From Obrimoposthia wandeli (taxonomy: Eukaryota), in assembly GCA_977020255.1 (NCBI GenBank), contig CDROCS010003282.1, positions 186,001-250,000 on the forward strand: 64,000 bases of DNA, in the 5' to 3' direction. The position numbers were made by a program, and so were the translations under genes. This document shows positions 5,979 through 28,758 of this stretch, piece by piece; position 1 is the first letter of the stretch; each line of letters starts with the position of its first letter. The notes under the pieces are model-generated. The model was given only the letters and a program-made list of their open reading frames with translations, had not been told where the DNA came from and searched no databases.

Positions 5979-7283
5979 TGTTAAGTTTAATTAATTAAAA
6001 GTTAATTAAAAAGTGCATTAGGTGCACATTTATTCCTTTCTGCCCAGTTCAAATTGCCTGGAGATGCTGCCATTTCTCTCTCTCTCTCCCCACAACCGCA
6101 GCTATCTCCCTCGGCATGCGACCGGCCTCCTGATTTTTGCCACTGCTGCTGCGACTAGTTTATCTCTTCCCCTTTCTGGCACGTGCTGGTGGCTAGTCGG
6201 TCCACAATCGTCCCAGTTGCTGTGGGGACTGAAGTGCAGATTATTTCGGACAGCGGCATCGGCCGCCTCTCTTTACTCTTCTCTCACCTCAAGATGCACA
6301 CACTCACAGAGCCTACCTGAATCTATGCCACATCAGCGACAATTATCCTCTCCCCTTACAACAGTACATCTGACTGATTTTATTGATTTTACCCATGTGT
6401 ATGCGTGTGTGGGCATGGCTTCTCCTCCAGTTACCTCTTCCCGATGCAGAAATTCCCCAACTACTGCGCCTATCTATCAATAAAGTCGAATCAAACTGAC
6501 CTATTTTCCCTTGTCTATTCCCTCTACCAAGCCGCCAATTGTGTTCCCCATGTACCATACAAGTCGACAATTCCCATCTGCCCATTCTATCACTTTCCGT
6601 GGCACCCAAACTCTAACTTACCATCTGCAGAAATTCTGCACATAATCGCCCTTTTTCCCTATCGATTATCTTCGCCGCTGCCGATGCTGCAATTCTGCAG
6701 CTGGCATTTATATACACTTGCTATAAATAGCAACAACAAATTGATATTGCTATAAATAGCAACGACAATATTTTCAGTGTACACAACTAAATTGGAAAAT
6801 CTATCGTTTCACAGAAGTCGTATTGATATTGGAAATCAAACAAAAAACAACCTAACACAATTTTGTTGAATTATTGAAAATTGTTGAGGCAGAAGTCGTA
6901 TTGATATTGGAAATCAAACAAAAAACAACCTAACACAATTTTGTTGAATTATTGAAAATTGTTGAGGCAGAAGTCGTATTGATATTGGAAATCAAACAAA
7001 AAACAACCTAACACAATTTTGTTGAATTATTGAAAATTGTTGAGGCAGAAGTCGTATTGATATTGGAAATCAAACAAAAAACAACCTAACACAATTTTGT
7101 TGAATTATTGAAAATTGTTGAGGCAGAAGTCGTATTGATATTGGAAATCAAACAAAAAACAACCTAACACAATTTTGTTGAATTATTGAAAATTGTTGAA
7201 ACAAAAATCATATTGTTATTAAATACAAATTTCGAGAATTTTTAGGACTTTTGGATCGAGTTATTATTATCGTTATTATAACA
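5979..7283 (+). repeat. 5' LTR (1305 bp)
   Basis: Direct repeat of 19443-20823; begins TGTTAAG, ends TATAACA. Confidence 0.97.
6813..7200 (+). repeat. 78-bp minisatellite inside 5' LTR, 5 units
   Basis: AGAAGTCGTATTG starts at 6813, 6891, 6969, 7047, 7125. Confidence 0.95.
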
Positions 7284-7284
7284 T

Positions 7285-7302
7285 TGGTGAGCCCGACTCG
7301 GA
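7285..7302 (+). promoter_or_regulatory. Primer-binding site (tRNA not assigned)
   Basis: TGGTGAGCCCGACTCGGA starts 1 nt after the 5' LTR; TGG is complementary to the tRNA CCA end. Confidence 0.75.
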
Positions 7303-8903
7303 ACACTGAACACCACAGGTCATTTATTATTTTTGATTTTTAAATTGTTTTATTTTATTTTATAAAAACTAAATTTTTCTGCATAATTATAGTGCATATA
7401 CATATATATGAATATATTTTTTTTTTAACTTAATTTGATTGTAGTAATTTATTTGGAGTAATTTGATTGTAGTAATTTATTTGGAGTAATTTGATTGTAG
7501 TAATTTATTTGGAGTATTTTGATTTTCCTAAAGAAAATTTTTGCAAAAATATTAATTTTGTGTTAGAAAATTGATTATTGTATTTAAAATTATATTTATT
7601 TCTAATAGTGATAGATAGAATTTCATAATCGTATAAATATTATTTTTGAAAATTAGGGATTCTTATAGTCTCACGAGTATTGTTTAAAAATTTTCGACCA
7701 TTTTTGAGCGGGACTGTTCCTCACTCTGCGGTAATCGAAACAAAGGTTCCGAGACCAAAATAAGCAGATAACCGTAGAATAAGGGAGCAGTTGTGGTCTT
7801 GGTGGTTGGTTAAGAAGGTAGAAAATAGAATTGCGGGAGACTGTAGGAATACCTTGACCTAAACATTTCTGAAAATATAATTACTGTTTAAAAGTTCATA
7901 TATCATAATTTTTATTAAAAACAATTTTACGGTTTTACAATTGTATTTGATTTTTGATTCAACTACTTATACCATTTATATTATCTCTCGAAGTTGGACT
8001 TACTATTTTACATTCATTTTTATTCTTTGGTAAACTGAATTGGAACCATAGAGTTGTTACATTAAAAAGTTGACATCATTAAAAATTATAACTAATTCAT
8101 AATTGTTAAAATCGTATATATTGTATACCATTTTTCAAATTTAACTTTGAAAAGTATCAATAAATAATCCTATTGTTCTGCGTATATATAAATATTTTTA
8201 TTCCTATCTTCATTGATAAAGTATAACAAACAATTAATTGACTTGTTGTTTGTAATAAAAGTAATCAGATCAAATAATATTTTATTAATAAAAAAAATAA
8301 AAAAAAATTTATACGTAACAATAATATAACTGAATTAGATTGACCCTTAGCGGTGGTGTATAGCTGATTTATTCAAAAGTAAGGATACTGTGATCAACCT
8401 CAAGCACTTACAGAATTTTGAACAAGATTTTTCTGTATCCATTTTTCATAATTGCGAAACAAGGATAGCCGACATCCAATAGGTCAGCAATCTTGAGAAG
8501 TCTGGGACAAATTATCTGATTCAAGAAAAGCTAAAAATTGGTTATTTAAACATTATAAATTCAACAACTTTAATAAAATCTACAACATAGTGATAAAAAG
8601 CGTTGAATAAATAAAAATAATAAAATTCATAAATCCAAACGTAGCGCTAGTCTTCACTGGCGACGAATTCAAGCCCGACTAGTAAGAACAGAACCTAAAG
8701 AATCACCACCACAGAGACCTAAATCTCAAATAAGCTTTAGAACAAATAGCGAATTTTTCCCAGAAACTTCATTACAACACCAACACCCAATCCAACTAAA
8801 CTTAACCAGCTCAGAAAGTCTAACAGATAGCCTTACTAACCAAACACTAGAAACCGATAGCTCAACAGAAGCTACTCAAAATACAAACACACCAGAACCC
8901 GAA

Positions 8904-10409
8904 TTGAACGAACCAAATAATATAGAAATAGATAATCAACCTCAAATAATGGCTGATCATAAATTAAATGTTCCTTTAGACGCTTTCAATGGCGATAAAT
9001 CTTCACTACCTGAATTTTTAAATAGATTTGATTCATTTGCTCAGGCATTTGAATGGACTAATGAAGAGAAACTTAGGGTTTTTCCAGCGTATTTAAAAGG
9101 CACTGCCTTAACAATTTATAGAGGATTAAACAATGAACAAAAGGACACATGGGACCATTTAGTTCAGAATTTTCAAAATATGATTTTGGGAACCCAATCA
9201 GAGCAAAATTACTTAAATCAGTTTAGACAACATGAGCAACATTTAGGAGAACCCACAAATATTTTTGCAATTGAATTAAGACGTTTAGCCCTAAAATCAT
9301 TCCCTGGAATTGAGGAAGTTTTAAGAGAGCGCTTACTGTTACATCAGTTTCTACATGGATTAAATAATAAAATCAAAAATCATCCAGCTCTACTAGAAGT
9401 AGAAAATTTTCAGCAAGCTGTAAATAAGGCTCAGCTTGTAGAAACAAGATTAAACATGTTACAACAATCTGAAGTTTCAGCATTAACCTTTGAAAAAATA
9501 CAAAGACCAACAACACCACCAAATTTCAATCAAACTCAAAACTATAACCCAAATACACAATCTAATTACCAAAGCCAACAACAATATACACCACCGACAA
9601 ATAACTTTTATAGAAATCAAACAAACAGAAACTATACAGACTCACAAATTACACAAAGACCTTTCCAAAAATGTACAAATTGTGGACTGAAAAATCACAC
9701 AATAGAGAATTGTTATAAAATAACCAACAACAAATTTTGTAGATTTTGTAAAAAAGACAATCATACTATTGAAACTTGCCGAAAATTGTTATACAGACAA
9801 GGTAATAATATAAGACCACAAAATAATAACTTTAACAATCCTAATAATAATTTCAAAAATACTAATAGTAATTTTAGAAGCCCATATAATAATTTCAATA
9901 ATCAAAATAATCAAGCTAAATATTTTAATACTAATACAAAATTTTGTAAAATTTGTTATATGAAAAATCACAATACTGATGAATGTAGCAAACTAAATAC
10001 AATGATTAACCAGTTTGGTAACGCAGCAGTGAAACAACAACAACCACAACCACAGAGTCAAAAAACAGTACAGTTTAACAATCAAAATCAACAATATGCT
10101 TACAGAAACCCAATACATACTATTGAAAACACTGATATAAATCAGGAAACAGAGGAGGTTGCATTGATGAGATTAAGACAACAAGAAATAGATAATCGCT
10201 ATAAAGAAACACATCAGCAATACCAAAACAATGAGCAAAACACAAATAGTACCAACTCTCAATCTGAATTCGGAGAAATATTTAGAAACGGTTGTCTAAC
10301 ATTAGAAAAAAGAACACAAATAAGTACAAAAATTAATCAAACTACTCAAACACAAAATAAAAAATCGAAAAATAAAAATAAACGAAAATCACCAAAAAAT
10401 AGTACATAA
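8904..10409 (+). CDS. gag: Gag (capsid plus three CCHC zinc knuckles); first ATG at 8949, frame open from 8607
   Basis: FNGD..EFLNRF..WTNEEK..LKGTA..W..L capsid pattern; CX2CX4HX4C three times (CTNCGLKNHTIENC, CRFCKKDNHTIETC, CKICYMKNHNTDEC); N/Q-rich linkers; basic C-terminus. Confidence 0.93.
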   Translation: MNEPNNIEIDNQPQIMADHKLNVPLDAFNGDKSSLPEFLNRFDSFAQAFEWTNEEKLRVFPAYLKGTALTIYRGLNNEQKDTWDHLVQNFQNMILGTQSEQNYLNQFRQHEQHLGEPTNIFAIELRRLALKSFPGIEEVLRERLLLHQFLHGLNNKIKNHPALLEVENFQQAVNKAQLVETRLNMLQQSEVSALTFEKIQRPTTPPNFNQTQNYNPNTQSNYQSQQQYTPPTNNFYRNQTNRNYTDSQITQRPFQKCTNCGLKNHTIENCYKITNNKFCRFCKKDNHTIETCRKLLYRQGNNIRPQNNNFNNPNNNFKNTNSNFRSPYNNFNNQNNQAKYFNTNTKFCKICYMKNHNTDECSKLNTMINQFGNAAVKQQQPQPQSQKTVQFNNQNQQYAYRNPIHTIENTDINQETEEVALMRLRQQEIDNRYKETHQQYQNNEQNTNSTNSQSEFGEIFRNGCLTLEKRTQISTKINQTTQTQNKKSKNKNKRKSPKNST

Positions 10410-12312
10410 AATACATATAATTTTAACAAAATCATCCAGAATTTATGGAAAATAATTCAAATAATATTTATGATATGTATAATTACAAATATAATAAAAC
10501 CTATAAATGCTCTTGAAGCATATGATTGTTCAAAATATAGTATTCAAAATAAATATTCACTAATGGATTTACAACAATGCGCCGACGCAGATCCAAATGA
10601 AGTAAAAGTTAAAACCACCAAGTTATTTCATGTATACCAGGAAACAGATTACATAAATACAGAAGTTTTCGAATGTAGAGTACATGTGGAAACATTCATA
10701 ACATATTGCGGACAACACAGCCATAATTCAATTGTTAAGCCAGCATTAGGAAAAACACCAATAATTGTTGACGCGTTAAATTGTAAAGATGCTTTTGCAA
10801 CAGGCGAACTGAGAATAGATAGAGAAATAAAAGTAAAAGCAATAAAAAACAAAATAATACAACAAATGATTACAGTGGTAGGAACTATCAAATCTGACGG
10901 AGAATGCACAACAGGATCATACGTCGTAATGGGAGTTAAACAAAATGGTTTAGTAGTTATAAAAAACTTTGAGGTAGAACTAAGAACATTTAAGGCAACA
11001 TTTGATCCATCTACAAATACCATGGTGACTATGCCTTTTTGTGCAGCGAATATCGGATATTGTAACACAGGATCCTCAATTTTATACTATAAGGTAAAAA
11101 CAGACCAATGTAAATTAATACTACTAAAATCAGAAAATTTCCAAATAATTCAAGGTCAAAGATTCAAAGATGATCCAGAGCTAGATCAACGAATTCCAAA
11201 AAATATACTTAAAAAATATAGAACTAGAAAAATACAAAAAACATCAACTCCAACTATTTTAATGTCAACTGAACAAGGTTCAGGTATGCGATTTATTAAA
11301 AAGAAAGAGGAATCCCGATGTGGACACTCTGTTTATTCAACTAATTATAAAGGAATATATCTAAGTAAAGAAAAAATTTATAATGCAAAAACTACACCAA
11401 CAAAATTTGATATAAAAAATTACGATTATTTCAATAATAAATTAGATTATTTTTATCACAAAGGATTAATGACAATAGAAGCTATTTATAGAGAAACAAT
11501 AATGAATGACTGTAAATTAAATCAAGAAATTTTGAAAACAAAACTAGCAATTATTGCTACAAATCCAGAATTAATAACACCATTATTACCGTTACCAGAT
11601 GGTACTTTCGGAAGAGTAATGGGAGAGGTATTATATACGTATCAATGCCAAAAAGTAATAGTTAATATAAGAAATCACAATAAATGTACTAAAGAATTAC
11701 CAATTTCATATAAAAATCATTCACTATTCGTAGAACCAATCACCAGAATAATACTTTTTAATACATTCAGTATAAAGGAAATGAATTGCTCAAACATAAT
11801 GGCACCTCATTATCAAATCTCAAAGGATATTTGGATATCACTCCCAAGAAGAGACATAGTCGCTCAACCATTAAAATTACAATTAACCGACCTCAATAAC
11901 GACATAGAAATAAAGTCAGACAATGAACTCAATACAAAAGGTATTTACATACAAGAAGACATAGACAAATTAAGAAAAGAAATTTTATTTCCTCAAATTA
12001 GATCACGAATTTTAACACAAATAATTGAAAGATCAGTACCAAACGGAATTGGCCGTCCTGATTATGATTTATTACTTTCTCCAAACCATTACATAAAAGC
12101 TACAAAAAATACAATGTCAAAAATATGGGGGAAAATTTTTAATATTTGGACAAGCATTTTCTGGACTGGTAGGAATATATGCACTACTAATATGCTTTAA
12201 AATACTATTGAGTCAAATTTTATCCACATACTATATTTATAAAGTTGGAGGATTAACATGGAAACTAATATTAGGATGTTTTCCATTTTTGGCAAAATTT
12301 CTTATATTTAAT
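10410..12312 (+). CDS. env: Chuvirus/Monjiviricetes-type fusion glycoprotein (env-like), with a +1 frameshift at G5 12127-12131
   Basis: Signal-like LWKIIQIIFMICIITNIIKPINA then LEAYDC; YSLMDLQQC; ITYCGQHSHNS; DCKLNQEILKTKLAI..NP..GEVLYTYQC..CTKELPI..FVEPITRI. After the shift: GKFLIFGQAFSGLVGIYALLICFKILL..GLTWKLILGCFPFL membrane region. Motifs match my recollection of chuvirus-like glycoproteins. Confidence 0.8.
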
Positions 12313-15300
12313 CATCATCAAAATACTGTAAACGCATTATCAAACGAAATGCGAGAAACAAATTTACAAAAAATAGTAGACAATAAAAATAAAGAGAATA
12401 CAGAATCTGCACAATACCCCGATTTAGAAAGATATAAAGAAGAAATAATAGTTAAAAAATCAACTGCACCAACAATATATACTATAAATCAAATGGATAA
12501 TGATAAACGACCTTATGTAAAAGTTGAAATAAATGAGTATAAATTAAAAGCTTTAATTGACACAGGATCAAGCGTAACAGTTTTAGACGAATCTTTCTTA
12601 AAACCACACCAAATATTGCTACTTCTCACAGATAATAGTCAAATAACAGCAGCAAATGGTCAACCCGTAAATATTATTGGTAAATTAGATTGCATTTTTA
12701 AAATAGGAGATAAATTTATAAAAATACCTACTAGAATAATGAAAAATTGTCCATGTCAGATGATAATAGGAATAGATACATTGAGGAAATTAGGAAACAA
12801 TTTTCACTTCGACTTTAAGAAAAATCAAATTAAAGACATTTACAGACCAAACGCTAAAAGCGAATACGAATTGGAAATAAAAGGAGATATCATCCTTCAA
12901 CCTAGAACAGAAACAATATTACAATTACAAACTAACATAGTTACAGAAAAAGACATCTTATTCGAACCTTATAAATATCAACAGGAAACATTAAATTACG
13001 TTCTACCAAATATAATTTGTAAAATAAAAAATAATACAATACCTATCAGAATACTAAATGGAGACATAAACGAGATTCATCTCAAAGTAGGAACACGCCT
13101 GGGAAAAATAAGTGTTATAGAGAATATAGAATTAATTAACAATGAAAAAATAGAAGACAATTCCACTGTAAAATTTGAAAATATTAGATTAAATGATTAT
13201 GAGAAATCAAAACTAAAATCATTGATGGAGAAATATGACGTAATTTTTGCAAAAAATGAATATGACCTAGGACGAACAGATTTAATTAAACATAACCTTC
13301 CGTTAACTATTAATACAGCAATCAAACAACGACCTTACCGTATCCCATACGCTTACAGAGAAGAAGCTCAAAGACAGGTAAAAGGAATGTTAGAGAATAA
13401 AATCATAAGAAGAAGTTTTTCAGCATGGACATCTCCAGTTGTTTTGATAAAAAAAAAAGATGGTTCACTAAGATTTTGCGTAGATTACAGAAAATTAAAT
13501 GAGATCACACATAAAGACACATATCCGCTTCCAAGAATTGATGAAATCTTAGATAAACTAAAAAATGCAAAAATATTTACAACCTTAGATTTACAAAGTG
13601 GATATTGGCAGATAGAAATAGAGGAATCAGATAAAGAAAAAACAGCATTCTCAACAGGAGAAGGATTATACGAATTTAACGTTTTACCTTTTGGATTAAC
13701 AGGTGCTCCAGCAACATTTCAGAGATGCATGAGCCACATTTTGATGGACGCCGATCATGTCATGGTTTATATCGACGATATTCTAATTTTTTCAAAAAAT
13801 TTTGAAGAACATTTAAAAGATTTAGAAAATGTATTTCTTAGATTAAAAATAGCAGGTTTAAAATTGAAACCAAAATAGTGTGAATGGATGAAAGACAAAG
13901 TGAATTATCTAGGTCACGCGGTATCAGCAAAAGGCATTCAACCAGATGAAAGTAATATAGAAAAAATAAAGAATTTTCCAATTCCAAAAACAGTAAAAAA
14001 TATACAAGAATTTTTAGGACTTGCAGGATATTATCGTCGATTTATCAGAAACTTTGCACAAATAGCAACACCATTAAACAAACTTATTAAAAAAGATGAA
14101 AAATTTGAATGGGAAACGGAACAACAAGAGTCATACGAGTACCTAAAACAAAAATTGATTGAAAAACCTATATTGAGATATCCTAACTTCAACAACTCGT
14201 TTCTAGTAATGACTGACGCAAGTGGATACGCGTTAGGAGCAGTACTAGGACAACAGGATAATAACGAAAAAGATCATGTGATAGCGTACGCAAGCAGAGG
14301 TCTTAAAAAACACGAAATAAATTATTCAACAATAGAAAGAGAATGCCTCACTATTTGCTTCGCAATGGAACATTTTAAACATTACTTATTAGGTCGAAAA
14401 GTTCACGTTTATACTGATCAAAGACCATTACAGTGGCTACTAAATCATAAAGATACGACATCTAGATTAATGAGATGGGCGTTAATTCTCCAAAAATATG
14501 ATATTGAAATTAAATATAGAAAAGGTAAATCAAACGCCAATGCAGATTGCCTATCTAGAATAAGAGAAGAAGTAAATGTAATAAATTCCAATGGTACCGA
14601 ATTAAATATTTTTACAATAATCAAGGCTCGATATGATGATAAAGTAATCACCGATCTTCAAAGCAAAGATACGGAATTACAACAAATAATTAAGTATATC
14701 ACCATCAATCAAGTTCCAACAGATGAAAAATTAAGAAAACATTTAAAAACTCATGAATCTCGCTATAAATTCAGTAACAATATTTTACATTATTTAAACG
14801 ATAAAAATCTGTACTCACTAGTTATACCTAAAGAAATACAATGCCAATTACTCCTTCAATATCATAACGGAGCTTTAGGAGGACATATGTCAACAAAAAA
14901 GACACATTCAAGATTAAATTTAAAATATTATTGGATTGATATGAAAGAAGATGTAAAAAATTGGTGTAATACTTGTGAAATATGTCTTAAAAGAAAAAAC
15001 ACCTTACGTACCACAAAGATACCTTTAAAACCAATACCGTATCCATCGGCCCCCATGGAAACTGTTGCCATGGATGTAATGGGGCCATTACCTGAAACAC
15101 CCCGAGGAAATCGATATATAATAGTATTTTCAGATTATTTTACAAGATGGCCAGAGGCTTTTCCAACACATGATCATAAGGCTGAAACCATCGCGAAGGT
15201 TTTAGTCGAAAAATTATTTTTACTTTCGGTGCACCCCGAAAATTATTAACCGACAAAGGTCCTGAATTTATAAATAATGTATTAGCATCAATAGCTGAAA

Positions 15301-16028
15301 TCTTTCACATAAAAAAGATCAATACAACACCATATCACCCTCAAACCGACGGATTAGTAGAAAGATTTAATAGAACCCTCGAAGATATGATGGCATCATA
15401 TACAAACAACAACCAAACAGATTGGGATTTGCACATACCCCCATGCCTTTTTGCATATAGAACATCAGTACATGCATCTACAGGAGAAACACCTTTTTAC
15501 CTTATGTTCCTCAGAGATCCGCAAATGCCTATTGATCTAACATTACTACAACCTACTACACAATACCTAGAAATACCTGAATACAAAATAGAAATTAGAG
15601 AAAGAATAAAACTAGCATTTGAAAAGGCTAAATTATTTGTAAAAAACATACAAGAAAATTACAAAGAATATTATGATAGAAGAACTAAACCATCAAATAT
15701 AAAAATCGGAAGTAAAATAATGATTCACAATCCACAAATCAATGTAGGATTATCACACAAATTATCAAAACCATACAAAGGACCATATACAGTTATTAGT
15801 ACCAATGGAACTAACATAACAGCTAAACTCGACAATGAGCTAAAATCAAAAGAAATAAGAACACACATAAATAGATGTCGACAAGTACCAGAAGAGAATA
15901 CAACAGTAAAAAGCCATAAATATAATTTGAGATCAAACACAAAAAACACAGTTTTACAAATGTTACCAATACAAGATATACAGAGAAAAATATTAAAAAC
16001 AAAAAATCTAAATGGAATAAGGCAATAG
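12313..16028 (+). pseudogene. pol: Pol (protease-RT-RNase H-integrase), broken by TAG at 13876 and a 1-nt deletion at 15209-15213
   Basis: ALIDTGSS (12559); LRFCVDYRKLN; LDLQSGYWQI; PFGLTGAPATFQR; YIDDILI; TDASGYALGAVL; YSTIERE; H..GGH..C..C; VAMDVMGP; LTDKGPEF and TDGLVERFN after frame repair; GPY motif. Confidence 0.96.
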
Positions 16029-16042
16029 TTATATCAATAAAG

Positions 16043-17290
16043 GAATTTTCAAAAATTTTAATAATATTCGCAATTTATCTCTTTATAAGTAAAAACGTGC
16101 AAGGAACAAATGCTACCAAACTAAATGATAAAAAACTAACTATAAAAAATGTTATAAATAAACATGACTCGACAACACATCTTATAAAAAATTTTGGTTT
16201 AATTACGATAATACCAGAAATCACATCTATAAAGTTAAAAATCTCGCTCTTTATAAACAAAACTGGAAATATACAAATTACACAAAAAGACAGAAAACAA
16301 AACATAACAATAATAGGAATAAAATCACGAAAATATACAATACCATTCTTAAGAGATGAAACACAATATGAAATTAAAATAAAATCAAATACACAAAACA
16401 TTACACTTTATCAAAGAACTATAGAAACTCACATATACCTAGCATCAATATTAGAAACAACAGCGAAATATATATCAAAACATAAAATAATGATAAAATG
16501 GGAATTTCAACTAAAAATAGACGACTTAGATAAAGCCCTAATTAGAATTAGATATAGAGGACATAATGTTAATTTTTGGAAAAACTCAGAAAAAAAATTA
16601 GGAAAAACACAAACTAAAACAAATTTAACCATAGAAAATATAAGATATCCAGAGAAAATAATAATACAATATAGAGAATGTGTAATCACAAATAAACCAA
16701 TGATGTATAGAAGTTGGGGACACATTTTGAATACTTACAAAAACATAACTACTTTAGAAATAATAGGAAAAAAGATATCAAAAATGTTTCAACCAACTCT
16801 TTTTTGCGGGAGTTGGCTAATAATAAAAATAAAAGAACCTATTTTAAATTCAACAAAAGTAATGAAAATATATTTAACACAATATACAACAAAAATATTT
16901 AAGAAAATATCATCAATCATTTCTAAAGAAAACATACAAAACCAGTCAACCTTTTTAAAAAATACAATAAATTCATCAAAATCGATGAACTTAAAACATA
17001 TGGCATTTTTTAGTCAACGAAATCATTCACAAAACATATATCGTGCAGAATTTAAGATAATAATAGCAATAATAATTGAAATGTTTAATATTTTAATAAA
17101 AGTAATAAGAAAAATAAGAAATTTTGAAAGAATTAAAACTAAAAAATCATTTCACTTAAACAAACTGTATGGACCACCAGGTCCACTCATAACATCCCTA
17201 ATACCAAGTGGTACAAATTCATCCAATACATCAATAGATACGGTAATCAAGAACTATAAGCACAAAGAGAAAAACAACACTGATTTGTAA
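16043..17290 (+). CDS. Putative type I membrane glycoprotein with an FN3-like beta domain (accessory ORF)
   Basis: Frame open from 15926; signal-like KILIIFAIYLFISKNVQG; IKW..IRIRYRG..W..TNLTIENIRYP pattern; nine N-x-S/T sequons; hydrophobic IIIAIIIEMFNILIKVI then basic residues; diverged homolog at 21325-21650. Confidence 0.55.
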   Translation, partial: EFSKILIIFAIYLFISKNVQGTNATKLNDKKLTIKNVINKHDSTTHLIKNFGLITIIPEITSIKLKISLFINKTGNIQITQKDRKQNITIIGIKSRKYTIPFLRDETQYEIKIKSNTQNITLYQRTIETHIYLASILETTAKYISKHKIMIKWEFQLKIDDLDKALIRIRYRGHNVNFWKNSEKKLGKTQTKTNLTIENIRYPEKIIIQYRECVITNKPMMYRSWGHILNTYKNITTLEIIGKKISKMFQPTLFCGSWLIIKIKEPILNSTKVMKIYLTQYTTKIFKKISSIISKENIQNQSTFLKNTINSSKSMNLKHMAFFSQRNHSQNIYRAEFKIIIAIIIEMFNILIKVIRKIRNFERIKTKKSFHLNKLYGPPGPLITSLIPSGTNSSNTSIDTVIKNYKHKEKNNTDL

Positions 17291-17355
17291 AAATCAAAAG
17301 ATTTATTTATTATTTTTTTTAAATAAGACTTAAAAACTTTTTAATAATTTAGAAA

Positions 17356-17664
17356 ATGAGAAATTCAAAATTAGTACAGAATAATAGAAGAAGATATAAG
17401 AGACAGAAAAAATGGGAAAATAAATTGTTAATAGAGAATATAAATCTGAGATCGCATTTAAAAGACAAGGAAATGGAATGTGAACGAATGAATAATGCTT
17501 TTGACGTTGCAATTGAAAGATTAGAATATAGCCAATCAAGCCAGGAAATACTAGTACAAAGACTCAGAGAAGCGTTAAATTCACTAATATCCTTACGATC
17601 AATGGTGAATCACTTGATGGGATTCCAACATATAGAAAGCGATGATTCTGGATGCGACAATTAG
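17356..17664 (+). CDS. Small basic/coiled-coil accessory ORF (102 aa)
   Basis: ATG start, RRRYKRQKK basic cluster, heptad-like helix, acidic tail; AG acceptor-like site 3 nt upstream. Confidence 0.5.
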   Translation: MRNSKLVQNNRRRYKRQKKWENKLLIENINLRSHLKDKEMECERMNNAFDVAIERLEYSQSSQEILVQRLREALNSLISLRSMVNHLMGFQHIESDDSGCDN

Positions 17665-17981
17665 TAAATTCCCTAGTGAGTAGAATTAAAATCATTTAAT
17701 AAAGACTGAGAATGAAATAGAGATTATGAGCATGATTTAGGAAAATAATGTTTAATGAATTAAAAAGGATAAAGAGAGAAAAATAATAATAATAAACATA
17801 ATTATATCTATATATATATCTATACTTTATTTATGATTATCGAGCAACAAGGAACTAGTACAATATTAGATATACTCTTGATTAACCAACTAACTAATGA
17901 ACTAATAATTTATTTTTATTTTTGCATGAGCTTTATGACTAATGACCTTGCTGTATTCTTATTCTGTTATATATATCACAG

Positions 17982-19126
17982 ATGGAATACTCAACAAACA
18001 AACGGAAATGGATCCGTGTAGTGGGAGAAAGTTGTTTAGACGGTCCTTCACCACCAGTTATAGATTTAAGCAACGATGAAATACAAACAAAGTGTACTCC
18101 AGAAATGAATATCTTAGCAAAGTTCCTTTATAGAAGAATGAGACAGTATAGGAAAGAGAAACTTAAAAATAATGATGAGAGCAAACACATTTTTGAAAAT
18201 CAAACGTTCATCCCAAATAAATTGAAAATCACTAAAACTAGTAGAAAAGGTGTCATAATCACCATGCATCATACAAAAAATGTAAGGATAAGTTTAATAG
18301 AATTGGTAGGTGAATTGATAGACATAGAGGAGATAGAGATACATGTAGCAGAAGGACGAGCCCACTTAATGAGTAAGCAAGAGAAAGATTTAAGTTACAT
18401 GTTCCTCCAAAATCATTCATACACCATCAGTAAAAACGAATTAATAAACGAATATTTATTAAAATTTAGTCCTAGACGCAATACATTTTTTATAGAGCTT
18501 ATAAAAAAGACAAATAAAATCATGTTCATAGAAAATAATACTACAAAACAGGCACCCGTTAAATATTTTATGGATTGTGAAATGGCCACCGCAGTTAACA
18601 AGTAAGTATCACGATAATAGATGAAAAGAACCAGATCGTGTTACATGAAATAGTCACACCGAGGGAAAGAATCCGAAATTATGTACATCGAGTGACTCAT
18701 TTTACGGAGAAATCATTGACAGGAAGAGCCGATGCGGAAGACATTATAACAAGAGCTCAAACAATACTAGTCGGAAACATCCTAGTAGGAGCAGGAGTAG
18801 AAAATGATTTAAAAGTTTTACGACTCGAAAGATGTCAGTTTGCAAGAATAGTAGATCTAGGTGCATCCACTGAAATTAGATCAGAACTAGGCCATAATCA
18901 TCCAAAAATAGCACTAAAAACAATGATAGAGAAATATTTTGGAGAAGAATCTCAAAAGAAATATCACACTTGTTTAGAAGACGCAAGAAACATTAAGCGA
19001 GTTTTTGACAAACGTAAAGAAAGACTGGTGGAGGAGTTCCGTTTGAATGATTTGTTGGGTACCCCAAATGAGATATCCGACTCCGACTCTGATTCAAACG
19101 ACTGTTTTATTCTAGACAACGTATAG
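17982..19126 (+). CDS. REX4/ISG20-like DEDDh 3'-5' exonuclease with N-terminal extension, split by a frameshift near 18600
   Basis: ExoI YFMDCEM (18570-18584) ends ORF 17982-18605. The other frame continues VSITIIDEKNQIVLHEIVTP..IRNYVHRVTHFT, ExoII NILVGAGVENDLKVL, IALKTMIEKYF and ExoIII HTCLEDA. Confidence 0.85.
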
Positions 19127-19442
19127 TTAAAAGGTATTATTATTACTGCACGAACAATTGACCTATTTGTTATCAAAAACCTATCAACTTTTAAACTATT
19201 TATCATTTTTAAAATGACTTCGTATACAAATTTTTCTGCAAATTACTGAAATTTTGATCCTGACATCAACTTTTAATGTAAGAACAAATTTTATACTCTT
19301 ATTATTTTATGCATCATGCAATAGATATTTTTACTACTCGCGAATGTGTAACATAAAAATTGACGTTTTACTTTTCATCTTCAAATTTTTTCATTTATTT
19401 TTGCGAACGTCAGAGGTCTGACTTGGTTTACCCCCATAGGAT

Positions 19443-20823
19443 TGTTAAGTTTAATTAATTAAAAGTTAATTAAAAAGTGCATTAGGTGCACATTTATTCC
19501 TTTCTGCCCAGTTCAAATTGCCTGGAGATGCTGCCATTTCTCTCTCTCTCCCCACAACCGCAGCTATCTCCCTCGGCATGCGACCGGCCTCCTGATTTTT
19601 GCCACTGCTGCTGCGACTAGTTTATCTCTTCCCCTTTCTGGCACGTGCTGGTGGCTAGTCGGTCCACAATCGTCCCAGTTGCTGTGGGGACTGAAGTGCA
19701 GATTATTTCGGACAGCGGCATCGGCCGCCTCTCTTTACTCTTCTCTCACCTCAAGATGCACACACTCACAGAGCCTACCTGAATCTATGCCACATCAGCG
19801 ACAATTATCCTCTCCCCTTACAACAGTACATCTGACTGATTTTATTGATTTTACCCATGTGTATGCGTGTGTGGGCATGGCTTCTCCTCCAGTTACCTCT
19901 TCCCGATGCAGAAATTCCCCAACTACTGCGCCTATCTATCAATAAAGTCAAATCAAACTGACCTATTTTCCCTTGTCTATTCCCTCTACCAAGCCGCCAA
20001 TTGTGTTCCCCATGTACCATACAAGTCGACAATTCCCATCTGCCCATTCTATCACTTTCCGTGGCACCCAAACTCTAACTTACCATCTGCAGAAATTCTG
20101 CACATAATCGCCCTTTTTCCCTATCGATTATCTTCGCCGCTGCCGATGCTGCAATTCTGCAGCTGGCATTTATATACACTTGCTATAAATAGCAACAACA
20201 AATTGATATTGCTATAAATAGCAACGACAATATTTTCAGTGTACACAACTAAATTGGAAAATCTATCGTTTCACAGAAGTCGTATTGATATTGGAAATCA
20301 AACAAAAAACAACCTAACACAATTTTGTTGAATTATTGAAAATTGTTGAGGCAGAAGTCGTATTGATATTGGAAATCAAACAAAAAACAACCTAACACAA
20401 TTTTGTTGAATTATTGAAAATTGTTGAGGCAGAAGTCGTATTGATATTGGAAATCAAACAAAAAACAACCTAACACAATTTTGTTGAATTATTAAAAATT
20501 TTTGAGGCAGAAGTCGTATTGATATTGGAAATCAAACAAAAAACAACCTAACACAATTTTGTTGAATTATTGAAAATTGTTGAGGCAGAAGTCGTATTGA
20601 TATTGGAAATCAAACAAAAAACAACCTAACACAATTTTGTTGAATTATTGAAAATTGTTGAGGCAGAAGTCGTATTGATATTGGAAATCAAACAAAAAAC
20701 AACCTAACACAATTTTGTTGAATTATTGAAAATTGTTGAAACAAAAATCATATTGTTATTAAATACAAATTTCGAGAATTTTTAGGACTTTTGGATCGAG
20801 TTATTATTATCGTTATTATAACA
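19443..20823 (+). repeat. 3' LTR (1381 bp), with six 78-bp units at 20275-20740
   Basis: Matches 5' LTR apart from one extra 78-bp unit, (CT)5 versus (CT)6, and a few substitutions. Confidence 0.97.
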
Positions 20824-27956: not shown

Positions 27957-28758
27957 ATGCCTATTTTCAACAACGTTGACCTAGACGAAGATATGGAGGT
28001 TCAGCTTATGGGTATCTCTCTCCAGTACAGCAGCGAACGCCACCACCATCACAGTCCATTGACTTACTTAGTCAAGACTCGTCGGTGGTGAGCGAAGGAG
28101 ACGAAGAAGAAGAAGCAGCAACAAGAGCGGAGCTGTTACTAGAAGAATCGCCATTGGCCAGCTCAACTCCGAGAGAAGAATCAATGGACGCGAGAGGTGG
28201 GTTACAGAGATCCCAATATATCAACCTGACTAGTCAAGATTCGATTGAGAATTGGGAAGAGTATAAGAGTATTCATTGAGTATAAGCCAAAATTTGGCTA
28301 GAGCTTGGGAGACTGCTTCTCTTCTGTCAACAGCATCTACCAGCCAGAACTTGAAGAGGGCCTGGGATGAAGCTTGATTGGAAAAATTCCTGGCGGAACT
28401 GGATCCTCCACAACCAGCAATGCTTCCAGATTCGCGAGGTCAGCATGATGCTGTCTCACGCCAGCTTCAGCGGGAGAAGGAGGAGAAATTGAATAAAGCT
28501 CCGCGGAAGAGGAAGGCTACAACTGCTTCGTCGGAGCCATCATCCTCTCAAAACGTTGCGGCAACTACTGTGAAAACCTCAGGAGGATCAATTGCTGCAC
28601 AGCAACCGGTGCAGCCGAAAAATAAACCTGGCCAACCAAAGAAGAAGGAGCCAGTGCCGCTTACTCCCTTATCACTCAGTCGGAGGGATATCGACGAGGA
28701 TGGTCCCAATAATGACTTTGTGGAGTGTTTTAGAAACAATATAATTTATAAAAAATAA
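27957..28758 (+). pseudogene. Frameshifted acidic/basic low-complexity ORF(s) of the TIR element (mirror 45692-46493)
   Basis: ATG at 27957 after a TATA-like motif near 27903; IDLLSQDS and INLTSQDS motifs; PRKRK basic cluster; pieces lie in different frames. Confidence 0.4.

Follow-up and report, generated by a model that had tools for sequence, protein, structure and literature searches.

Exonucleases are among the listed accessory domains of LTR elements (PMC6338049). In the bdelloid LTR elements Juno and Vesta, and in Terminons, ORF3 was described as a separate DnaQ-like 3'-5' exonuclease, encoded downstream of pol, with intact catalytic residues and spliced messages (PMC5408684). Two further kinds of element are close in organization: the errantiviruses of flatworms, nematodes and bryozoans, for which a GAG-ENV-POL arrangement was reported (PMC13524379), and the planarian giant gypsy elements Burro/GYPSM1, with an envelope amid gag and pol and with TRAF/MATH, RING, BIR and ankyrin cargo (PMC6431247). 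We analysed a 64,000-nucleotide stretch of Obrimoposthia wandeli DNA (the window, to which all positions given without a locus name refer), in which an errantivirus-like element carries a predicted exonuclease gene.

A retrovirus-like element and its last gene

The LTR retrotransposon at 5979-20823 is a retrovirus-like gag-env-pol element of 14.8 kb with a chuvirus-like envelope. Its LTRs, target duplication, primer-binding site and protease, reverse transcriptase, RNase H, integrase order are those of Ty3/gypsy (Metaviridae) errantiviruses, and the HSV gB/chuvirus-type envelope is placed between gag and pol, as in GAG-ENV-POL errantiviruses. The following features were identified:

5979..7283, + strand: 5' LTR, TG...CA, containing 78-bp tandem repeats
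7284..7301, + strand: primer-binding site with TGG start; sister copies start alike
8607..10409, + strand: gag with zinc knuckles; Pfam Retrotrans_gag E 2e-4, below cut-off
10410..12420, + strand: chuvirus-like (HSV gB-type) envelope, flanked by gag and pol, frameshifted in the window copy; PF24664 E 9e-77 and 3e-10
12480..16028, + strand: protease, reverse transcriptase, RNase H and integrase, interrupted in the window copy
15926..17290, + strand: orfX, predicted membrane protein with two hydrophobic stretches; in several sister copies it continues the pol frame
17353..17664, + strand: orfY, short ORF, likely coiled coil
17962..17981, + strand: splice-acceptor-like site, pyrimidine-rich, with AG abutting the start codon
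17982..18605, + strand: nuclease gene, first piece (disordered leader, jelly-roll domain, ExoI)
18057..18071, + strand: SIM-like motif, putative SUMO binding
18087..18521, + strand: predicted double-stranded beta-helix domain, AlkB/2OG-oxygenase-like, canonical metal ligands apparently absent
18599..19126, + strand: nuclease gene, second piece (ExoII, ExoIII of putative DEDDh type, acidic tail)
19406..19442, + strand: short block before the 3' LTR, at the polypurine-tract position, atypical; common to types with unrelated nuclease DNA
19443..20823, + strand: 3' LTR, mosaic of type-A and type-D LTR parts, joint near 19,870

A 78-bp repeat unit and a gap of two bases aside, the 5' and 3' LTRs are equal at 1302 of 1303 aligned bases, the element is flanked by TAAC, a 4-bp target duplication, and the empty insertion site is preserved in the mirror arm of the large inverted duplication of the window; we therefore consider the insertion recent and the element young. 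This giant duplication makes up most of the window (121-33473 and 36073-58203, with arms 95-100% complementary) and, since the LTR element is present in one arm only, insertion followed duplication. At the polypurine-tract position, 19432-19442 is C-rich and not purine-rich, yet conserved across types.

From its hydrophobic leader, ectodomain, membrane span and short tail, orfX would resemble a type I membrane protein at the end of a polyprotein. Divergent versions share 51-57% identity and evolve faster than pol (dN/dS 0.3-0.7); no match to a solved structure or Pfam family was obtained for orfX, one of the seven versions tested giving one weak fn3 match (E 0.02). The short orfY, with an AG shortly upstream of its start codon, accompanies nuclease types A, C, D, D2 and H (types are described below) and is absent with B, E and I; a similar short coiled-coil ORF lies upstream of the nuclease at loci L123-L126.

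The nuclease gene is the last gene of the element, placed after pol and before the 3' LTR. All catalytic motifs of a DEDDh exonuclease, which the initial annotation had noticed in order but split over two ORFs, were located: D-C-E-M (18573-18584) in frame 17982-18605, and G-V-E-N-D (acid at 18806) and H-T-C-L-E-D (His 18965 and Asp 18980) in frame 18599-19126. The succession of D and E (ExoI), D (ExoII), and H and D (ExoIII) is that of a DEDDh nuclease, as judged from these motifs. The break had been suspected of hiding a larger deletion and, in fact, the window copy is 13 bases shorter at approximately 18,600 than 28 of 29 close copies, the alignment of the 29th ending before this site. These sister loci come from a DNA search in which the best 40 of 334 candidates were scored and 29 other loci fetched; all three motifs share one frame in 26 of the 29, and the frame has at least 385 residues in 19. 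An intron at the break was rejected, since sister copies are continuous in one frame. The window copy cannot encode the whole nuclease protein. Contigs from four runs of one sample are compatible with a real 13-base deletion or an assembly error; in the same contigs, depth is far greater over orfX/orfY than over the window nuclease type, which is consistent with a mix of alleles and is no measure thereof.

All five catalytic residues are present in 74 of the 77 ORFs of at least 330 residues in the same genome and in 12 of 14 metagenome ORFs, most loci having been chosen by likeness to unbroken queries. The histidine of the REX 'GH' motif before ExoII, conserved in REX, is replaced in 74 of the 77. 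An AG lies immediately 5' of the ATG in 69 of the 77 own-genome and 6 of the 14 metagenome ORFs, and 1-3 bases upstream in most others; this placement of the AG is the one that a spliced subgenomic mRNA would lead one to expect, and the gene is likely expressed in this way.

The SIM-like PVIDLS pointed out in the initial annotation is indeed present, in a leader modelled with low confidence (disordered), and is not universal in the family. Within the first or last 45 residues we found such a motif in 22/24 A, 12/16 B, 8/14 C, 5/5 D, 4/4 D2 and 3/4 H ORFs (near the N-terminus in A and B and near the C-terminus in C, D, D2 and H), and in 0/6 E, 0/1 I, 0/3 F and 0/14 metagenome ORFs; shuffled termini gave 113 in 36,000. 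Short ORFs of another repeat, at 27980-28758, also have acidic, SIM-like motifs.

Predicted folds of the nuclease and N-terminal domains

The earlier assignment of the enzyme as DEDDh and REX4/ISG20-like holds by its motifs, by its matches to SDN1 and ISG20 and by the predicted model. A natural unbroken copy matched, among solved structures, Arabidopsis SDN1 (E 1.2e-5) and human ISG20 (E 1.2e-4), and the family profile matches SDN1 at 8.9e-11. The model of the unbroken copy (pLDDT 83, pTM 0.78, 22 sequences) superposes on ISG20 with Z 21.4 and rmsd 2.0 over 162 aligned residues (VIA), and ISG20 was also the best Foldseek match (E 9e-10), so that a DnaQ-like fold closest to ISG20 is predicted. 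The suggested profile check, made with Pfam RNase_T, divided the family: types C, D, D2 and E score above the cut-off (2.2e-11 for a sister type; 15 of 22 aligned family members at E<=0.01), whereas A (the window type), B and F are unmatched. A word-based homologue search with the nuclease region found no homologue among 206 candidates, the viral contigs searched held no relative of the gene, and an atlas search with the whole protein gave weak RNase_T leads only (0.86). Many top RNase_T matches in the same genome assembly are single-exon frames of DnaQ/PolC size, suggesting bacterial contigs.

The fold, the five catalytic residues and D-C-E-M are shared with ISG20, ISG20L2, REX4 and SDN1. However, identity to ISG20/SDN1-type structures is 18-21%, the element nuclease branches apart from named REX4 proteins, and its N-terminal jelly-roll was undetected in the 64 cellular-side rows of the tree described below.

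For this N-terminal part, a weak RRM-like stretch had been suggested; it forms strands of a beta-helix in two confident models and had no RRM match in Pfam, and we reject the RRM reading. Folded alone (pLDDT 87), the domain is predicted to be an eight-strand double-stranded beta-helix with flanking elements, the structural organization of AlkB/2OG-Fe(II) oxygenases. The best whole-domain matches, largely tied, were Ofd2 (Z 11.9, rmsd 2.8, 135 residues), ALKBH6 (11.4), ALKBH7 (10.9), ALKBH5 (10.7) and prolyl hydroxylases (10.4); cupins reach Z ~9 over 95-99 residues, yet come first by E-value in Foldseek. Among the viral structures, plant-virus replicases are among the best matches, and poxvirus proteins are found too. 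The predicted fold is shared with AlkB/2OG-Fe(II) oxygenases, among them the AlkB domains in replicases of plant RNA viruses, over 134-142 of 145 residues, but at 4-14% identity and with an HxD...H that is not conserved here. There is no conserved His, Asp or Arg (the HxD...H iron ligands and the 2OG-binding Arg) in the columns on strands II, VII and VIII, which we assigned from what we take to be the double-stranded beta-helix topology; in the model, the iron ligands are apparently absent and the domain is likely inactive as an oxygenase. Tyr50, Pro78, His121, Gly125 and Glu172 are nearly invariant.

As to ancestry, no sequence-profile match supports an AlkB/2OG origin: no AlkB Pfam domain was found in the 65 proteins scanned among 150 listed library matches, an atlas search with the domain returned nothing, and its profile recovered, in the homologue search, six proteins, all family members. 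A literature search on the poxvirus dead-oxygenase fold found no relevant paper.

Diversity, exchange and relatives of the nuclease gene

We were able to identify in the same genome, among the matches listed in searches with PF00929 and with divergent members, at least nine nuclease types (A, B, C, D, D2, E, F, H and I) and one further variant. The proteins of A, C, D, D2, H and I are 35-82% identical, with synonymous sites saturated in most pairs, and their pol segments are 98-100% identical; the backbones of B and E are 93-96% identical. DNA likeness to the window is lost at 17,370-17,800 and regained for about 70 bases at the LTR start. Among 39 copies picked by integrase identity (from the best 40 of 1,524 candidates), 36 carry a nuclease gene (14 D, 12 I, 7 C, 2 A and 1 new variant) and the remaining three break off inside orfX; the nuclease frame is whole in 20 of 36 sampled copies and not in 16.

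The first 430 bases of the window LTR are common to only 4 of the 29 type-A loci, and the next part matches type-D elements. The LTRs (window 19443-20823; L002-L030, L101-L116) are hypervariable mosaics, nuclease genes 99% identical being found with unrelated LTR bodies; across copies only the first 30-160 bases of the LTR bodies are common, and the two LTRs of each copy match at 97-99.8%. The presence of divergent types and mosaic LTRs on one pol indicates frequent recombination near the 3' end and old nuclease versions that outlived a recent backbone sweep: old, divergent versions were repeatedly exchanged onto one young backbone. Since the LTRs are even more mosaic than the nuclease, this swapping may be a by-product of frequent 3'-end recombination.

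When types A and B are compared, the whole gene has a dN/dS of 0.09, its nuclease domain 0.06 and its N-terminal half 0.09, against 0.06 in the reverse transcriptase; within types the ratio is 0.24-0.44. The pairs in these comparisons are not independent. Among C, D and D2 it is 0.07-0.11. All values are rough, because synonymous sites between types are near saturation. The comparison across copies that had been proposed as a check thus gave approximately 0.1, a purifying selection as strong as that on the reverse transcriptase.

A REX4-like gene, single-copy and intron-split, is also present in the same genome; it shares 41-51% identity with cellular REX4s but 25-33% with the element proteins. 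In a quick, unrooted tree of 117 of 171 nuclease domains (54 lower-ranked library matches were left out), the element proteins do not group with cellular REX4: 53 rows, with all element proteins and every jelly-roll-bearing protein, are separated from 64 rows with the named REX4s by a branch of 0.89 (SH-aLRT 100). Selection, conserved residues, distance from the host REX4 and this split together argue for an old element-borne family and not for a fresh host fragment.

Relatives were found elsewhere. When 1.84 billion proteins were searched with a profile, 3,067 matched, and the N-terminal domain is present in 20 of the best 150; the ten matches whose clusters were looked up had no informative names. 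In one metagenome assembly, relatives are encoded at twelve loci. The envelope-pol-nuclease order recurs at one of them (pol 44-56% identical); at a second, pol is accompanied by ankyrin repeats and by two nuclease paralogues, of which one is catalytically dead; a third lies near a gag, and a fourth has two RING genes and TRAF upstream. On the short contigs of the other eight, gag, env and pol are all missing. Two metagenome paralogues lost the catalytic residues and kept a 460-residue frame. At L128:6867-8246 and L130:64-1434, a catalytically dead two-domain paralogue is in tandem with an active-looking one. Related polyproteins with more than one aspartic protease domain are encoded at L121:1-9663 and L128:1-6660, the latter with ankyrin repeats after the integrase.

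Type F (31-39% identical), from the same genome, is preceded by a Burro-like pol (42-58% identical), a 1,792-residue ORF and a RING gene. A Polinton origin of this type was considered, from pPolB and capsid pieces near one locus, and rejected; nesting is the simpler reading, because another F copy has a gypsy pol and a RING gene upstream. One type-F nuclease copy (L141:83-2590) has a long C-terminal array of 34-residue repeats, acidic and with SIM-like motifs, and upstream of a type-F element pol, at L155:9341-9901, there is a stretch that by eye we take to be BIR-like.

Possible functions and comparison with known systems

We tentatively propose, as a reading that falls a little short of probable, that this conserved accessory gene, whose mRNA is likely spliced, specifies a predicted ribonuclease of the ISG20/REX4/SDN type joined to a likely inactive AlkB-like domain, and that it acts in counter-defence. 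The predicted 3'-to-5' ribonuclease would trim or destroy RNA used by the host against the element, and the jelly-roll domain could pick the substrate or a partner protein, by analogy with the extra domains of SDN1. The substrate might be a guide small RNA or the immune-stimulating RNA of the element itself, the SIM-like motif may take some types to SUMO-rich silencing sites, and many versions would persist if no single one stays effective or unsilenced.

Since one pol (98-100%) pairs with six nucleases (35-82%), a host- or rival-facing gene is a better fit than a polymerase partner. Counter-defence is further suggested by the nearest solved structures, those of an antiviral RNase (ISG20) and a trimmer of small RNAs (SDN1), by the TRAF, RING and ankyrin genes that adjoin the relatives, an apoptosis/ubiquitin cargo as in Burro, and by the retention of the gene in 36 of the 39 integrase-picked copies, along with its conserved catalytic residues and the purifying selection on it. 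SDN1 was described as acting on Argonaute-bound small RNA (PMC6123492), an arenavirus DEDDh nuclease that suppresses innate signalling provides a precedent (PMC7968707), and planarians were reported to have a dsRNA response and RNAi (PMC8797187). Against counter-defence are the SIM-like motif missing in E, I, F and metagenome ORFs and the two dead paralogues that were kept, and so are the replaced REX 'GH' histidine and the chance that allele swapping is a recombination by-product. The 2'-O-methylation of piRNAs, which hinders many 3' exonucleases, also counts against it. A more specific version, which we regard as unlikely, is that of an enveloped gypsy clade with an anti-silencing enzyme, whose dead AlkB-like domain would recognize either an Argonaute/PIWI partner or RNA modified at its end or on a base, and pass it to the SDN/ISG20-type nuclease, with ancient alleles swapped in an arms race with small-RNA defence; if true, this would be a transposon-encoded enzymatic suppressor of animal piRNA or dsRNA immunity.

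The nuclease could instead help replication, by trimming element RNA, primers or cDNA ends or by proofreading, and so aid the copying of a 15-25 kb genome, a role that we consider rather doubtful. Nearly all copies that extend to the 3' end have the gene, selection acts on it as strongly as on pol, the DEDDh nuclease of nidoviruses serves in proofreading (PMC7968707), and the same idea was offered for the DEDDy cargo of rotifers (PMC5408684). However, the nuclease is a separate gene, outside the polyprotein, the nucleases paired with one near-identical polymerase go down to 35% identity, and most gypsy elements manage without such an enzyme. To our knowledge, enzymes of the ISG20/REX/SDN type are not proofreaders, and the evidence favours counter-defence over proofreading.

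An ISG20-like destruction of the RNA of competing elements or viruses, with the own type spared, would explain the many versions and is in line with ISG20 as the closest fold, with the coexistence of at least nine old types in one genome and with the antiviral role proposed for accessory domains (PMC6338049); it is nonetheless quite unlikely, as the types freely exchange LTRs and backbones by recombination, for which they must be expressed and packaged together and not excluded, and no type-specific RNA signal was found. Equally, the protein may mainly bind, the jelly-roll domain (and the SIM) blocking a host protein with catalysis secondary. Selection on the N-terminal domain (0.09) equals that on the nuclease, the domain has its invariant Tyr, Pro, His, Gly and Glu, dead paralogues were kept, and poxvirus proteins with a jelly-roll fold are among the viral matches, but all five catalytic residues persist in 74 of the 77 own-genome ORFs, at identities of 31-82%, which makes this improbable. 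Finally, a host REX4 fragment acquired by chance and carried without function, the outcome that loss of catalytic residues in other copies would have indicated, could account for the broken window copy, the 16 of 36 copies without a whole frame and the Pfam miss of the window type, but is largely refuted and highly improbable, given the conserved residues, the strong purifying selection, the low identity (25-33%) of a host gene that is closer to cellular REX4s (41-51%), the family's own side of the tree and a pol that is broken as often in the same copies.

Active counter-defences in animal retrotransposons are an open question with few candidates, and the nuclease makes it directly testable: the protein is small and soluble, its active site is clear, natural alleles are many and dead paralogues exist, and in the host group RNAi knock-downs and piRNA studies are routinely made. 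Old alleles swapped on a young backbone are the pattern expected of a conflict gene.

With the GAG-ENV-POL errantiviruses of Platyhelminthes, which have an HSV/gB-type ENV (PMC13524379), the element shares the gene order, the kind of envelope and the young multi-copy family, and its envelope resembles by eye the listed Smed_errantivirus_1 fragment. The terms 'exonuclease' and 'DEDD' are absent from the main text and the seven supplements of PMC13524379 searched, and the 3' accessory nuclease, orfX and allele swapping, features of the element here, are undescribed in those parts. In Burro/GYPSM1 the envelope is also amid gag and pol, and cargo types of Burro adjoin relatives of the nuclease gene (PMC6431247). 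However, Burro/GYPSM1 elements have 25-30 kb and BIR, MATH/TRAF, BCL2 and ankyrin cargo, whereas the element here has 14.8 kb and none of these in its ORFs; a nuclease is unnamed for Burro in the available part of PMC6431247. Type F lies downstream of a Burro-like pol.

In the literature searched (Repbase, subscription papers and the primary Burro paper being outside its scope), DEDDh cargo of the REX/ISG20 type, the jelly-roll fusion and allele swapping were not found for such elements, nor was the fusion of an AlkB-like fold to an ISG20-like nuclease in the literature and databases searched. The contrast with bdelloid exonuclease cargo drawn in the initial annotation stands: ORF3 is an RNase D-like DEDDy enzyme (PMC5408684), whereas the element nuclease, with its ExoIII His and DEDDh best matches, is REX4/ISG20-like, and this difference argues for independent capture. 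Unlike ORF3, for which PMC5408684, in its available part, detected no purifying selection, the element nuclease is under clear purifying selection, is fused to a predicted jelly-roll and has an envelope alongside. Exonuclease cargo is already known from the DEDDy enzymes of rotifers, and the predicted DEDDh jelly-roll fusion appears to be a new variety of it.
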